A stretch of 64,000 nucleotides of DNA from an uncultured Arthrobacter sp. (GTDB lineage Bacteria > Actinomycetota > Actinomycetes > Actinomycetales > Micrococcaceae), in assembly GCF_902805515.1 (NCBI RefSeq), contig NZ_CADCTE010000066.1, positions 18,114 to 82,113 of the forward strand. The letters are read 5' to 3'. The position numbers and the translations under genes are program-made. Under the pieces are notes generated by a model, which made no database searches, had not been told where the DNA came from, and saw only the letters and a program-made list of their open reading frames with translations. Shown here one piece after another: positions 28,410-32,311 of this stretch. The stretch's first letter is position 1, and each line of letters starts with the position of its first letter.

Positions 28410-29753
28410 TTACCTTGGAAGCCTAACGGGCATCCACGAAAACTTCACTTCGTTGGAGCTCCATCCAATGCGGCGGCGTTGGCGTTGTTCAACCGTCACA
28501 TCGGCGAGTCCCGCAATCGCCCTCCGCAGGGCCGAGGACGGGGCAGTTTCGACGAGCGCCGAGCCCGCCAGCAGCGCCTCGTCCGCCGCCGGAAAATCGG
28601 CAGGGAGGAAGGCCGAAATGGCCGCGCCGGGCCCGAACCGCTCCCAGGCCTCCCTCAGCTGGTCCTCCGGCGAGCGCCCGACGGAACCGGCGCGGACCTT
28701 GTTGAGCACCACCCTCGGCTCGGCCGAGGGCACCGCCTCGGCCAGGACGGCCAGCGAACGCACGAGGCGCGGTACGCCGACGGCGTCGGCGGCACCGACC
28801 GCGATAACGGAGTCGGCCAGTTCAAGGCAGCGCAGTGCCGCGCCGTTGCGGCGGGGAGCGGCGGTGTCGAAGCTGAGCTCCTCGTCCGCTTCGAGGCAGA
28901 ACCCGCAGTCGACGATGGTCACGGCGGCGCATGCACGGGCGTACTCGAGGACCCGGGCCAGGGCCGCGGGACGCACCTCGGGCCACCGGTCGGGCCGCGT
29001 CAGGCCGGTGAGGACTCCCAGCCTGCCGCCGCCCACGGCGACGGTTGAGGCCACCCGGCGGAGCCCGTCCGGGTCGAGCGTCCCCTGGTCTGCGAGCCGG
29101 CAGGCCTGGGCAAGTCCGGCGGCCTCATCGAGCAGACCCAGGAACGCCGCCACACTGGCCCCGTAGGTGTCGGCATCGACAAGCAGGACGGTGGAGCCGG
29201 CCGCCGCCAGCTCCGCCGCCATATTCACGGCCACCGTGGTCCGCCCCGGGGCCCCGATCGGCCCCCACACCGCGGTGACGGTGCCGCCGCCGGGTTCGCC
29301 GGGTTCGCCGGCGGGCGGCTCGGCGGTTTGCCCGGGGGGCGGCAGGGAAGCGGCCGGGTCGGCGTAGGCGCTGGTGCCCAGACTTCCTGCGGCGCCGGAC
29401 AGGCTTTCGACGGCCGCCGTGACGAGTTCGGCCAGCGCGTCCGGCGCGATGCCGGGAGGCGCACGGCGTACCCCGGGCGCCACGACCCCCGCGGCCGGTT
29501 CGTCCTCTCCCGCGAGCACCACGACGGCGATCCCGGTGTCGCGCAGCCGCTCCAGGAGCGACACCGTCAGCGCTCCGGTTCCGGGTGAGAGGATGGCCGC
29601 GCGGGCCAGTCCCGCCTGGCCGGCTGCCAGCAGTTCGGGCACCCCCTCGCAGCGGCGCACCACGGTCACCGGGCCGTGGAGTTCCTCCAGCCCGGTAACG
29701 TACTCCCCCGCGGCCGGTCCCACGGTGACGACGGGGATGACCGGGCCGCTCAC
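28410..29753 (-). CDS. CpaE/TadZ-like MinD/ParA-family ATPase with pseudo-receiver N-terminus
   Basis: Deviant P-loop WGPIGAPGRTT, VLLVDADTYG, IVDCGF; receiver-like N-terminal region without an obvious phospho-Asp; coupled to the SAF gene. Confidence 0.75.
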   Translation of the reverse strand: MSGPVIPVVTVGPAAGEYVTGLEELHGPVTVVRRCEGVPELLAAGQAGLARAAILSPGTGALTVSLLERLRDTGIAVVVLAGEDEPAAGVVAPGVRRAPPGIAPDALAELVTAAVESLSGAAGSLGTSAYADPAASLPPPGQTAEPPAGEPGEPGGGTVTAVWGPIGAPGRTTVAVNMAAELAAAGSTVLLVDADTYGASVAAFLGLLDEAAGLAQACRLADQGTLDPDGLRRVASTVAVGGGRLGVLTGLTRPDRWPEVRPAALARVLEYARACAAVTIVDCGFCLEADEELSFDTAAPRRNGAALRCLELADSVIAVGAADAVGVPRLVRSLAVLAEAVPSAEPRVVLNKVRAGSVGRSPEDQLREAWERFGPGAAISAFLPADFPAADEALLAGSALVETAPSSALRRAIAGLADVTVEQRQRRRIGWSSNEVKFSWMPVRLPR

Positions 29754-30418
29754 GGACTCCCCCGCGGGTTCAGCACCACGGCGATCTTCGCACCGTTCGA
29801 CAGGGCGTTCAGCAGGGCAGGCATTGCCTCGTCGGCCACCAGCACGTAGACCCGGGACGGGGATTCCGTTCCCAGGGCCGATTCGTTGACCGCGATCTCG
29901 GAGACCTCGGCGCCCTCAAGCAGGAGCCGGGGCTGCTCGAACCGGGTGCCCTGCCCGGTGGCCGCCTCCGGCAGGGCGACCCAGACATCGACCCGCACCC
30001 CGGGCTCCGTGCCCGCGGGGAGGGGGTCCTCGATGGGAAGCCCGACCGGTTTCCTGTCCAGTTCGTCGGGGCGGCCGACGGCGGCGGCCGGAACCAGTTC
30101 GCCCGGGCGGACGAGCCGGGTTACCACCGCGTTCTTTGGAAGGCCGGAGGAGGCCCGAAGGTACTTCTCCTCCGAGCCTCCCAGCCGGACGGCGACCGTG
30201 GTGAGGTCACCTGACTCCAGGCGGGTGCCGACGGGAAGTTCGGTACGGGCAGCGAGGACATCGGTGGTGCGGTCGAGGCTGCCGACCAGCGCCGTAACCC
30301 CTGCGGTGGAGGCCAGCACGAGCAGGAGACCGATGATGAGCCGTGGATCCCGCCAGGACGGCCTGCCGATCCGCGGCGCGGTGGCGTGACCGTCCGTCCG
30401 GCTGGCGTTACCGCTCAT
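29750..30418 (-). CDS. Membrane-anchored SAF-domain protein (CpaB/RcpC-like)
   Basis: RDPRLIIGLLLV TM, VLAARTELPVGTRLESGDL SAF motif, GVRVDVWV RcpC-like C-terminus; ATG 30418 with GGAGG RBS. Confidence 0.75.
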   Translation of the reverse strand: MSGNASRTDGHATAPRIGRPSWRDPRLIIGLLLVLASTAGVTALVGSLDRTTDVLAARTELPVGTRLESGDLTTVAVRLGGSEEKYLRASSGLPKNAVVTRLVRPGELVPAAAVGRPDELDRKPVGLPIEDPLPAGTEPGVRVDVWVALPEAATGQGTRFEQPRLLLEGAEVSEIAVNESALGTESPSRVYVLVADEAMPALLNALSNGAKIAVVLNPRGSP

Positions 30419-30547: not shown

Positions 30548-30661
30548 CCGGCACCTCCGGGGCCGTGGAGTGACAGAATTGAGGCAGGTCCAGCCGGGTG
30601 CCCACGGTTGGAACGGAGGCGCTCGTGGAGGCAAGGCCACGGCTGAGGAAGAGGTGTTCGT

Positions 30662-30889
30662 GTGGCTGAGAAGCGGTTCCTGACCCTCGCCGACGTTGCG
30701 GAGGTGCTCAATATCAGCTCCTCCCAGACCTACGCCCTGGTTCGCTCGGGGGAGCTTCCGGCGATCCAGGTGGGCGGGCGCGGTCAGTGGCGCGTCGAGG
30801 CACGGGTCCTCGAGGACTACATCGCCGATGCCTACCGGAGATCCGCAGCCGCCCTGCGCGGAAGCGCCGACCCGGTCAACAACGCCTGA
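30662..30889 (+). CDS. Stand-alone HTH_17 / excisionase-like (BldC-like) DNA-binding protein
   Basis: FLTLADVAEVLNISSSQTYALVRSGELPAIQVGGRGQWRV, 75 aa; no integrase nearby. Confidence 0.85.
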   Translation: MAEKRFLTLADVAEVLNISSSQTYALVRSGELPAIQVGGRGQWRVEARVLEDYIADAYRRSAAALRGSADPVNNA

Positions 30890-30901
30890 GCGTCTATGGT
30901 G

Positions 30902-31453
30902 TCAGGGGCGGGAGGCCACCGCGGCGACCGCGGCGAAGGGCAGCGCCACCACCGCCCGGACATTGGCCGGCCTGCGGTGCTCGCCCGGCGGAACGAGTGC
31001 CACCTCGAGGAAGTCGGCTCCGACCCGATCCAGCGTGCCCTCGGAGACCGTGACCGGTGACCCTGCATAGACGCTGATGTGCGCCCGGTCGCGGGCCAGC
31101 GCGCGGTAGGCCGAGGCGAGGCCCAGGCGGGCGTGGATCCCCGCCGGGCGCGGGGCGACGGCACGTCCCAGACCTTCGATACTCAGGATCGCGGCGAAGG
31201 GCACCAGGACGGAGCGCTGCCCCTCTGCGAGTACGAGCCATTCGGCGCCGACGTAGGCCAGGCTGCCGGAGAAGCCCTGCCCGTTCCCGGTCCGGACCTT
31301 CAGCCCCTGGGCGATGGAACCGGCCAGCCGGTCCGCGAGGGCCACCCGCGCCTGCTCCATCCTGAGCAGGTCTGCCGCCGCCGCTTCCTCCGAGGCCGCC
31401 CGCGCGGCCGCCAGCTGGGCCTCGAGATCACCGAACAGGGCTTCCCACCGCAT
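30902..31453 (-). CDS. Conserved hypothetical protein with two internal Sm/Hfq-like repeats
   Basis: MRWEALFGDLEAQ start (ATG 31453); internal duplication GSLAYVGAEWLVL..VPFAAI / GTLDRVGADFLEV..LPFAAV. The ORF is well supported; the fold is inferred by eye. Confidence 0.7.
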   Translation of the reverse strand: MRWEALFGDLEAQLAAARAASEEAAAADLLRMEQARVALADRLAGSIAQGLKVRTGNGQGFSGSLAYVGAEWLVLAEGQRSVLVPFAAILSIEGLGRAVAPRPAGIHARLGLASAYRALARDRAHISVYAGSPVTVSEGTLDRVGADFLEVALVPPGEHRRPANVRAVVALPFAAVAAVASRP

Positions 31454-31504
31454 GGTCCAACGGTAGGCAGGCGGGTAGAGGGGGTCAACGAATTCGAGTA
31501 GCCG

Positions 31505-31550
31505 TAAACGTATACAAGCGGTATCAAACGCGCTCAAATGGATGCAAATG
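31505..31550 (+). repeat. Five hexamer direct repeats at exact 10-bp periodicity
   Basis: TAAACG (31505), CAAGCG (31515), CAAACG (31525), CAAATG (31535), CAAATG (31545) in a divergent promoter region. Confidence 0.8.
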
Positions 31551-31564
31551 CAAGGGAGGAGACC

Positions 31565-32311
31565 ATGGAAAGGCGCTTGGGGGTTCTCTACCCTGCGGCC
31601 CTCCTCGGCCTCGGGGCGGTCCTCGTCCTCTCGGGACTGGGGCTTGCCTCCGGTGCCTCGCGGGCGCCGGAGACCGGTATCGGCGCCGTCGTCTCCGTTG
31701 CCGGCCTGGGCCTGCTGCTCTGGTGGACCGGGGCCCTGGCGCTCGCGCTCGGCGCCGAGGTCCTCAAGCGGAGGGGCCGCGCCGCCGCCGCCGCCAGGAT
31801 GGCGGCCCTCACTCCAGGCTTCATGCGCCGGCTGGCCGCCGTGCTGCTCGGGGCGAATCTCCTGGCCGCACCGTGCGCAGCCTCGGCGCCGCCGTCGGCA
31901 TCGATCCCACCCGCGGTCCCGGCACCCACGGTCGTGGTGCCGGCTGTCGCGGCCCTGACCGTTCCTGCAGACCGCGGCGAGGACCCTCAGCCCGGGCAGT
32001 CCCACCCGTCCGTTCGGGAACCGCGGGTCAGCCCGGACTGGAAACCGCTGCCGCTCCCCTGCGATCCCGGCCTGCTGGCCCGGCCGCCAAGCCAGCAGGG
32101 CGCGGCACCGGATGCGGACAGCGCCCGGGTGGTTGTCCGGAGGGGTGACTCGCTGTGGTCGATCGCCGCGGCGCGGCTCGGTCCCCTCGCCTCGGACGCC
32201 GACATCGCGGCAAGCTGGCCGCGCTGGTACGCGAGGAACGCCTCACTGATCGGCCCGGATCCGGACCTCCTGACACCGGGCCAGACACTGGCTGCCCCGG
32301 ACCCGCCCTGA
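31565..32311 (+). CDS. Membrane-anchored LysM peptidoglycan-binding protein
   Basis: N-terminal TM helices, Pro-rich linker, VVVRRGDSLWSIAAARL...IGPDPDLLTPGQTL LysM; ATG 31565 with GGGAGG RBS. Confidence 0.85.
   Translation: MERRLGVLYPAALLGLGAVLVLSGLGLASGASRAPETGIGAVVSVAGLGLLLWWTGALALALGAEVLKRRGRAAAAARMAALTPGFMRRLAAVLLGANLLAAPCAASAPPSASIPPAVPAPTVVVPAVAALTVPADRGEDPQPGQSHPSVREPRVSPDWKPLPLPCDPGLLARPPSQQGAAPDADSARVVVRRGDSLWSIAAARLGPLASDADIAASWPRWYARNASLIGPDPDLLTPGQTLAAPDPP

Follow-up and report, generated by a model that had tools for sequence, protein, structure and literature searches.

An uncharacterised actinomycete protein with two predicted Sm/Hfq-like domains is encoded in a Tad/competence gene neighbourhood

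The window, a stretch of 64,000 nucleotides from an uncultured Arthrobacter sp., contains a gene for a protein that is predicted to fold into two Sm/Hfq-like domains within a single chain. The gene, termed X below, is present in most actinomycete families. It belongs to an ancient module that further comprises a convergent HTH_17 gene and a divergent SAF/RcpC-TadZ/CpaE(-TadABC) operon. We hypothesize that X, as a tandem Sm-fold protein, serves this Tad/competence module as an adaptor or scaffold, a reading that builds on predicted structures and gene context and to which we give about an even chance.

Gene X and its predicted fold

The open reading frame of X lies on the minus strand, with an ATG at position 31453, a TGA at 30902-30904, and 183 codons in between. 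Since nearly all homologues begin with M-R-W, the ATG at 31453 was taken as the start. A longer ORF of 367 aa (GTG at 32005) is unsupported, as the homologues start with M-R-W. The features of the gene are as follows.

30902..31453, minus strand: coding sequence of X, a putative tandem Sm-like protein of 183 aa (stop codon 30902-30904), from the ORF and its homologues
31346..31453, minus strand: N-terminal helix, residues 1-36; acidic, with M-R-W-x-x-L-F-x-D-[LM]-E-x-Q near-invariant, and R31
31166..31345, minus strand: predicted Sm-like domain 1, residues 37-96; one helix and five strands, G63 corresponding to Hfq G34
31139..31165, minus strand: inter-domain linker, residues 97-105; variable, Ala/Pro-rich, with the lowest pLDDT of any block (77)
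30905..31138, minus strand: predicted Sm-like domain 2, residues 106-183; basic, with an L4 loop of 15 residues

A gene for a LysM protein is divergent from X, with a gap of about 84-112 bp, and the HTH_17 gene (75 aa) is convergent with it, with 12 bp between the stop codons; X is therefore monocistronic. A scan for promoters and terminators at X found none. The sequence TTGACC-17-TACCGT, which ends 5 nt upstream of the ATG, might be read as a leaderless promoter. Two soil metatranscriptomes yielded only low-depth contigs of relatives, covering the HTH gene and the 3' part of X, which is weak evidence for transcription of the region. No signal peptide or hydrophobic segment was found in the protein, which is cytoplasmic and belongs to a large, uncharacterised family that actinomycetes carry in single copy.

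The structure of X was predicted with AlphaFold2 from an alignment of 63 sequences (pLDDT 94.1, pTM 0.82). The model begins with a helix at residues 2-35 (pLDDT 92-97), which is followed by two units of the same build, each with the N-terminal helix and the five bent antiparallel strands of the Sm fold. In unit 1 the helix spans residues 39-44 and the strands residues 50-55, 60-68, 72-77, 80-85, and 89-93; in unit 2 the helix spans residues 112-122 and the strands residues 125-130, 135-144, 148-153, 167-172, and 176-181. Both units contain a 3-10 turn between beta4 and beta5, in the style of Sm proteins.

A Foldseek search of the PDB with the full-length model gave 2x4j, ORF137 of Pyrobaculum spherical virus (PSV), as the top match (E 6e-4, 139 columns, TM(target) 0.69), together with dozens of Hfq and SmAP chains and a haloarchaeal Lsm, at a probability of 1.00. 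The Hfq/Sm chains matched with TM(target) values of 0.64-0.78 and rmsd values of 2.3-2.9 A over about 60 residues. Domain 2 was also modelled alone, from 61 locus-derived sequences (pLDDT 87). Its best 50 PDB matches were almost all Hfq (TM 0.70-0.80, rmsd 1.4-2.6 A), from E. coli, Salmonella, Pseudomonas, and Synechocystis (3hfo), and the list also contained AF-Sm1 and the LSm domain of EDC3. A search of the viral structures in BFVD was uninformative apart from PSV relatives. Pyrobaculum spherical virus encodes a variant Hfq-like protein (PMC3543421), which is probably 2X4J. This protein of an archaeal virus is a single barrel with 9% identity to X, and the likeness is one of fold alone.

Relationship to Sm and Hfq proteins

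Searches of Pfam, NCBIfam, and PDB sequences with the whole protein gave no match even at E<=10. The same was true for either half against Pfam and NCBIfam, and searches of Pfam, NCBIfam, and PDB sequences with the halves and with profiles gave nothing significant. The Hfq family HMM PF17209 matched neither the whole protein nor either half at E<=10, none of the homologues carries a precomputed Pfam annotation, and an HMM search of PDB sequences gave Lsm 6tfl without significance (E 0.28).

Profile-profile comparisons with hhalign used sub-profiles drawn from an alignment of 200 family members. Residues 37-96 aligned with residues 106-183 over 45 columns with a probability of 96.6% (E 5e-10), which indicates that the two halves are homologous and, as judged from these profiles, arose by internal duplication. 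Because E. coli Hfq as a database query retrieved nothing beyond near-identical sequences from enterobacteria, a profile of 10 Hfq sequences was used, 9 of which pass PF17209. Domain 1 aligned with it from beta1 to beta5 (86%, P 5e-6), domain 2 from alpha1 to beta3 (23%, P 9e-4), and the merged unit over 44 columns (74.5%, P 2.7e-5); these P-values are pairwise, and if a library of about 20,000 families were corrected for, the evidence from sequence would by itself be marginal. With 60 column-shuffled Hfq profiles the maximum scores were 13.0 for domain 1 and 15.5 for domain 2, compared with real scores of 29.4 and 21.4. When single sequences served as partners, Synechocystis Hfq was best for domain 1 (53%) and E. 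coli Hfq for domain 2. Taken together with the fold match, the sequence evidence makes common descent of X with Sm/Hfq likely.

These results bear on a sequence-only reading of the same DNA, which had proposed the ORF at 30902-31453 and had aligned its product by eye with two tandem Hfq/Sm folds. The ORF is real, and both peptide strings quoted in that reading are present in its translation. The tandem repeat turned out to be statistically real, the profile-profile alignment of domain 1 fell in exactly the register that had been drawn by eye, and the pattern of a helix followed by five strands was seen in both modelled units. The AlphaFold monomer, compared by Foldseek, was Sm-like (pLDDT 94, probability 1.0). 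AlphaFold2, Foldseek, and hhalign agree with the proposal of a covalently duplicated Sm/Hfq-like protein, and the noted replacement of the YKH of Hfq was found as P-F-A in both repeats.

The most conserved stretch of X is the N-terminal motif, in which R2, W3, L6, F7, and D9 are each kept in at least 94% of the sequences, E11 in 87%, and Q13 in 84%. The spacing from F7 to R42 is exactly 34 residues in 197 of 200 sequences. Conservation of the linker is low, and from G94 to R117 the distance is 20-24 residues in 192 of 200. The Sm1 glycine of beta2 is kept in both domains (G63 94%, G139 96%) and is aligned with Hfq G34, whereas the Sm1 aspartate of the beta2-beta3 turn is kept only in domain 2 (D147, 99%, equivalent to Hfq D40), domain 1 having a glycine there. 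The A-[IV] of Sm2 is retained, but the motif [YF]-K-H-A-I, which in Hfq builds the proximal uridine pocket together with Q8/Q41/F42, was not found; both domains carry [VI]-P-[FL]-x-A-[VIL] instead, with V-P-F-A-A-I in domain 1 and L-P-F-A-A-V in domain 2 compared with V-Y-K-H-A-I in Hfq. Hfq Q41/F42, which X does not keep, align with A70/E71 in domain 1 and with F148/L149 in domain 2. With P-[FL]-x in place of Y55-K56-H57 and with Q41/F42 lost, X has no canonical proximal uridine pocket.

Helix alpha1 of domain 2 contains R117 (100%) and R121-D122-R123 (93/83/98%), the latter aligned with R17-E18-R19 of Hfq. Domain 2 further carries D142-R143-V144-G145 and, in its L4 loop, an R160-R161 pair (G-E-x-R-R). 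Charges are partitioned throughout the family, with an acidic helix (median net charge -4, median pI 4.4), a neutral domain 1 (about 0, pI 6.3), and a basic domain 2 (+4, pI 11.2).

In comparison with Hfq (PF17209; E. coli 1HK9, P. aeruginosa 1U1S), X shares the predicted alpha1 and five bent strands with the 3-10 turn before beta5, the Sm1 Gly/Asp in register, the A-[IV] of Sm2, and, in domain 1, the NG turn. An R-[DE]-R that closes alpha1 of domain 2 aligns with the rim arginine patch of Hfq (R16/R17/R19). In contrast to Hfq, two domains are fused in 183 aa behind an acidic helix of 35 residues, PF17209 finds no match, the uridine pocket Y-K-H with Q41/F42 is replaced, and the L4 loop of domain 2 comprises 15 residues. 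Archaeal SmAP/LSm and augmented Sm proteins (6TFL, 1I4K; Pae SmAP3; EDC3 LSm) are also among the structural matches, but their canonical Sm2 (R-G-x-N) is absent from X. Fusion of Sm modules to other parts is an established theme (PMC3710371). No description of an Sm-Sm tandem within one prokaryotic chain was found in the literature searched, including that paper, and a literature search yielded nothing relevant on Sm/Hfq proteins in tandem or on an actinobacterial Hfq identified from structure.

The Hfq of cyanobacteria (Synechocystis Ssr3341, 3HFO; Hfq_1, PF21979) is similar to X in its degenerate Sm2, with V-R-L-A-A-I compared with V-P-F-A-A-I. Synechocystis Hfq is without the canonical RNA pocket, in agreement with this stretch, and its structure 3HFO was the second-best Foldseek match of X domain 2. 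It binds PilB1, the pilus ATPase, and neither pili nor transformation is obtained without it (PMC4390875). The Tad/competence context of X parallels this link to the type IV pilus machinery, on the side of X by gene context only. In contrast to X, cyanobacterial Hfq is a single-domain homohexamer without an acidic N-terminal helix, and it interacts with a C-terminus of PilB1 that is specific to cyanobacteria, whereas X is linked to its module by gene neighbourhood.

Distribution and gene neighbourhood

A word-seeded search found 93 relatives of X, all named 'hypothetical protein' or unnamed except for two that carry a UniRef 'Fis family' label. The label 'Fis family transcriptional regulator' on these two members was rejected because no domain match backs it. 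An exhaustive phmmer search of 1.84 billion representatives returned 1385 clusters at E<=0.001, 783 of them at E<=1e-10; nearly all are 175-200 aa long and matched end to end, with the same architecture. The organism of the window is close to Arthrobacter frigidicola (98% aa). X is single-copy and was found in 101 of 121 genomes and 45 of 54 genera of the same order, and in 176 of 251 genomes and 111 of 138 genera of the class, but in only 24 of 301 genomes sampled across the phylum. It also occurs in another class (family f23). It was not detected in two large-genome families of the sample (f15 and f16), which we take to be Streptomyces- and Mycobacterium-like, nor in two whole families of its own order as far as these were sampled.

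The following neighbours of X lie in the window.

30662..30889, plus strand: HTH_17 (excisionase-family) DNA-binding protein, 75 aa (Pfam PF12728, E 1.4e-12)
29750..30370 (start codon uncertain), minus strand: SAF-domain (RcpC/CpaB-like) protein (Pfam SAF, E 0.0016, below the curated cut-off)
28410..29753, minus strand: TadZ/CpaE-like ParA-family ATPase (Pfam ParA/CbiA)

The order secA, DUF6459, LysM, X, HTH_17, SAF, TadZ-like was found in 80 loci from Micrococcaceae, Cellulomonas, Kineosporia, Nakamurella, Nocardioidaceae, Pseudonocardiales, and Mycobacteriales MAGs, and the same order occurs at the orthologous loci of Rothia. The SAF gene is the first of the divergent operon, in a conserved position. 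HTH_17 adjoins X in about 86 of 88 loci, which represent many orders and another class. In this different class the order is the same, and behind SAF-TadZ come genes for a T2SSE ATPase and a pair of T2SSF proteins (TadA/TadB/TadC), which makes it a full Tad locus. In the Micrococcaceae TadA/B/C are not adjacent, with a distance of about 44 kb to the nearest T2SSE gene.

Presence and absence of the genes were compared in counts that ignore kinship. In 20 genomes of the same order without X, an HTH_17 orthologue was found in 0 of 20 and the TadZ-like gene in 0 of 20, whereas in 20 genomes with X, from 20 genera, HTH_17 was found in 19 and the TadZ-like gene in all 20, adjoining X. The genomes without X yielded one paralogue-type HTH_17 match of 40% identity. 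The losses fall in seven families, two of which lack X throughout the sample while the rest are scattered. The number of independent losses is modest, because it is made up of two whole families and of scattered losses in three to five more, two of these being single-genome cases in incomplete assemblies.

The function of the neighbouring genes has been studied in Micrococcus luteus, where the same locus is 'cluster 13' (Mlut_14630-14670) (Torasso Kasem et al. 2021, PMC8467076). Point mutations in Mlut_14660, the HTH-17 gene, altered how active the comEA/EC promoter was, and some of the mutations that hit this gene, its 5' leader, and Mlut_14650, the SAF/RcpC gene, lowered transformation. Knockout of Mlut_14650 reduced transformability 10^4-fold, whereas Mlut_14660 could not be deleted. 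Mutant phenotypes were given for these two genes only; Mlut_14670 is coloured in the synteny figure as a conserved flanking gene, its nature being unstated (all PMC8467076). The HTH_17 gene of the window matches the competence regulator Mlut_14660 in family and gene position. Judged by position, Mlut_14670 should be the orthologue of X.

Part of the synteny of X could stem from a core-genome neighbourhood near secA that has stayed frozen. X would then be an Sm-fold protein with a function of its own, independent of that of its neighbours, such as a factor of the secA/cell-envelope region with a structural or protein-binding task, and the gene order would merely have been inherited. X has its own divergent promoter region and shares an operon with none of its neighbours, secA, DUF6459, and the LysM gene are conserved on its other side as well, and Sm domains that do not act on RNA occur in MscS and in augmented SmAPs (PMC3710371). 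However, X, HTH_17, and the TadZ-like gene are absent together in 20 genomes from seven families and present in 20 genera, a pattern that is hard to account for by frozen order alone and that secA, being universal, cannot explain. We regard the idea as rather unlikely, though it is the alternative to the adaptor that survives best.

Possible functions of the tandem protein

X is gained and lost together with neighbouring genes that in Micrococcus control DNA uptake, and it therefore looks like a specialised Sm-fold adaptor rather than the "missing Hfq" of the phylum. Its strict co-occurrence with the HTH_17/SAF/TadZ-like competence module points to a module-specific role. As an adaptor, X may use its basic domain 2 to bind a polyanion (nucleic acid) or an acidic partner, while the acidic N-terminal helix of fixed length may dock on domain 2, as autoinhibition or buttress, or recruit a partner. 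The role of X would then parallel that of cyanobacterial Hfq at the ATPase of the type IV pilus, rather than that of a global sRNA chaperone.

To our knowledge, the Actinobacteria are the textbook case of a major phylum without Hfq. PF17209 found no protein in any of 31 genomes (that of the window and 30 relatives), compared with 5 positives among 14 control genomes, which include E. coli, B. subtilis, and Caulobacter. The sequence-only reading, which had stated that the phylum has no recognised Hfq, is borne out for this genome and clade, and its picture of a duplicated Sm/Hfq-like protein in an Hfq-less clade holds on the predicted structures. The general RNA-chaperone role that it had offered as one option is weakened, as the pocket is gone, X was not detected in several large families of the sample, and X co-occurs strictly with the competence module; its other option, a non-canonical scaffold, fits better. 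An actinobacterial Hfq had been proposed before: DUF3107, found by DELTA-BLAST in 2015, with a predicted secondary structure that lacks alpha-beta5 (bioRxiv 10.1101/026195). DUF3107 is short, has a single domain, and represents a family unrelated to X; the missing-Hfq question is the same.

X might nevertheless be a functional Hfq analogue, in which three chains form a ring via beta4-beta5 and sRNA and mRNA are annealed by the arginine rim of domain 2. This would be in line with the predicted Sm fold of both domains, with the clade having no canonical Hfq, with the median pI of 11.2 of domain 2, and with the alignment of R121-D122-R123 (83-98% conserved) with the annealing-active rim patch R17-E18-R19. 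The C-terminal tip of E. coli Hfq is acidic and autoinhibitory, and the acidic helix of X could mimic it. On the other hand, the pocket residues Y55-K56-H57 and Q41/F42 are missing from both domains, and domain 1 is neutral. X was also undetected in two sampled families of its own order and in those presumed to be Streptomyces- and Mycobacterium-like, and wherever it is lost, a specific neighbouring module goes with it, a pattern that does not suit a global chaperone. A functional analogue of Hfq is therefore unlikely.

As X is a two-domain chain, it could at best form a putative 3x2 pseudo-hexamer. The idea, raised by the sequence-only reading, is attractive in view of the two modelled Sm units per chain and a linker of 20-24 residues. 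That three chains form such an Sm ring within the Tad/competence module, binding either RNA or the Tad ATPase/TadZ, is nonetheless decidedly doubtful as a full account. Candidate RNAs for such a ring would be, for example, com transcripts or the HTH_17 mRNA with its structured 5' leader, and binding of the Tad ATPase or TadZ is modelled on the cyanobacterial Hfq-PilB1 pair.

It is very improbable that the barrels of X are generic small beta-barrels of the SH3/Tudor/PRC type that resemble Sm by convergence only: although Pfam, NCBIfam, and HMM-versus-PDB searches gave no significant Sm match, tandem Tudor and de novo SH3-like barrels were among the weak matches, and Foldseek E-values were only about 1e-2, Hfq/Sm proteins filled nearly all top ranks for both queries (TM 0.7-0.8), the tandem-Tudor matches to full-length X were poor (TM about 0.2, rmsd 12 A), the model has the helix before beta1 and the 3-10 turn between beta4 and beta5, Sm1 Gly/Asp are kept in register, and in the profile-profile comparison the real score far exceeds those of the shuffles.

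In summary, most actinomycete families hold an unannotated protein that is predicted to combine two Hfq/Sm folds in one chain. X bears on the question of what assists the many small RNAs of the Actinobacteria, although X is unlikely to be a simple substitute for Hfq. It is a concrete gene for work on competence, Tad pili, and RNA binding in tractable laboratory strains. It also has a parallel in cyanobacterial Hfq, a protein that acts at a type IV pilus ATPase and from which the canonical RNA pocket has likewise been lost. If the Sm ring of X should prove true, pilus assembly and DNA uptake would be tied to post-transcriptional control in a phylum that is supposed to be without Hfq.

Start regions of X and of the neighbouring reading frames

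The sequence upstream of X, the 183-aa predicted tandem Hfq/Sm-fold protein, contains a candidate promoter, and the start codons of two neighbouring reading frames were reconsidered.

31454-31500, minus strand: candidate promoter of X, upstream of the ATG at 31453
31538-32311, plus strand: LysM-protein ORF, listed start 31538

On the minus strand, the candidate promoter reads TTGACC, 17 nt, TACCGT, 5 nt and the ATG, and a Shine-Dalgarno sequence is absent from this stretch. Judged by its sequence, TTGACC/TACCGT could be a sigma-A-type promoter yielding a leaderless mRNA; it was not called by the promoter scanner, the consensus of which is that of E. coli. The LysM protein more probably starts at 31566, where an ATG has GGGAGGAG in front of it, than at 31538. 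At its 3' end, the same ORF runs past 32155, the start listed for the DUF6459 ORF; this start is probably over-extended, and the Pfam match of the DUF6459 protein begins only at residue 120.

Divergent orthologues and variable surroundings

The Rothia orthologues of X (loci L094 and L095) have 30% identity. They carry M(A)HLDLLFRDYEIQ or MEKIFRDYEAQ in place of the N-terminal MRW..LF.D.E.Q, and these replacements point to the F-x-D-x-E-x-Q core as more constant than R2/W3. The R-D-R triplet of domain 2 is weakened in both loci.

28410-30370, minus strand: SAF and TadZ-like genes
Contig C66, 4846-5619: T2SSE ATPase gene, on one contig with the SAF and TadZ-like genes at a distance of about 44 kb

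Next after the SAF and TadZ-like genes in the window Arthrobacter comes a large NAD-glutamate dehydrogenase gene, not tadA/B/C, and a second T2SSE ATPase is encoded on contig C115 of this genome. In a distant class, a complete SAF-TadZ-TadA-TadB-TadC row adjoins X.

L079, 9029-9496: DUF6912 protein, Cellulomonas timonensis

In Cellulomonas, the TadZ-like gene is followed by the DUF6912 gene, directly past which an RsgA GTPase gene lies on the opposite strand; both are further uncharacterised neighbours of the module.

The convergent HTH_17 gene

30662-30889, plus strand: HTH_17 protein, 75 aa, convergent neighbour of X

Contigs from two soil/biocrust metatranscriptomes (90–98% identical, depth 2–9) match 30619-31132; they take in the HTH_17 gene, the convergent junction and the last 230 nt of X at its 3' end. 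The two transcripts possibly overlap at their 3' ends. The HTH_17 protein is much more highly conserved than X, with 99% versus 92–98% identity in close Arthrobacter species and 55–62% versus 30–37% in another class. Many genomes have weaker, paralogue-type copies at other sites (39–51% identity), and in many of these a TGA is read through. By family and position, the 75-aa protein corresponds to Mlut_14660 of M. luteus, a competence regulator (PMC8467076) that is apparently essential.
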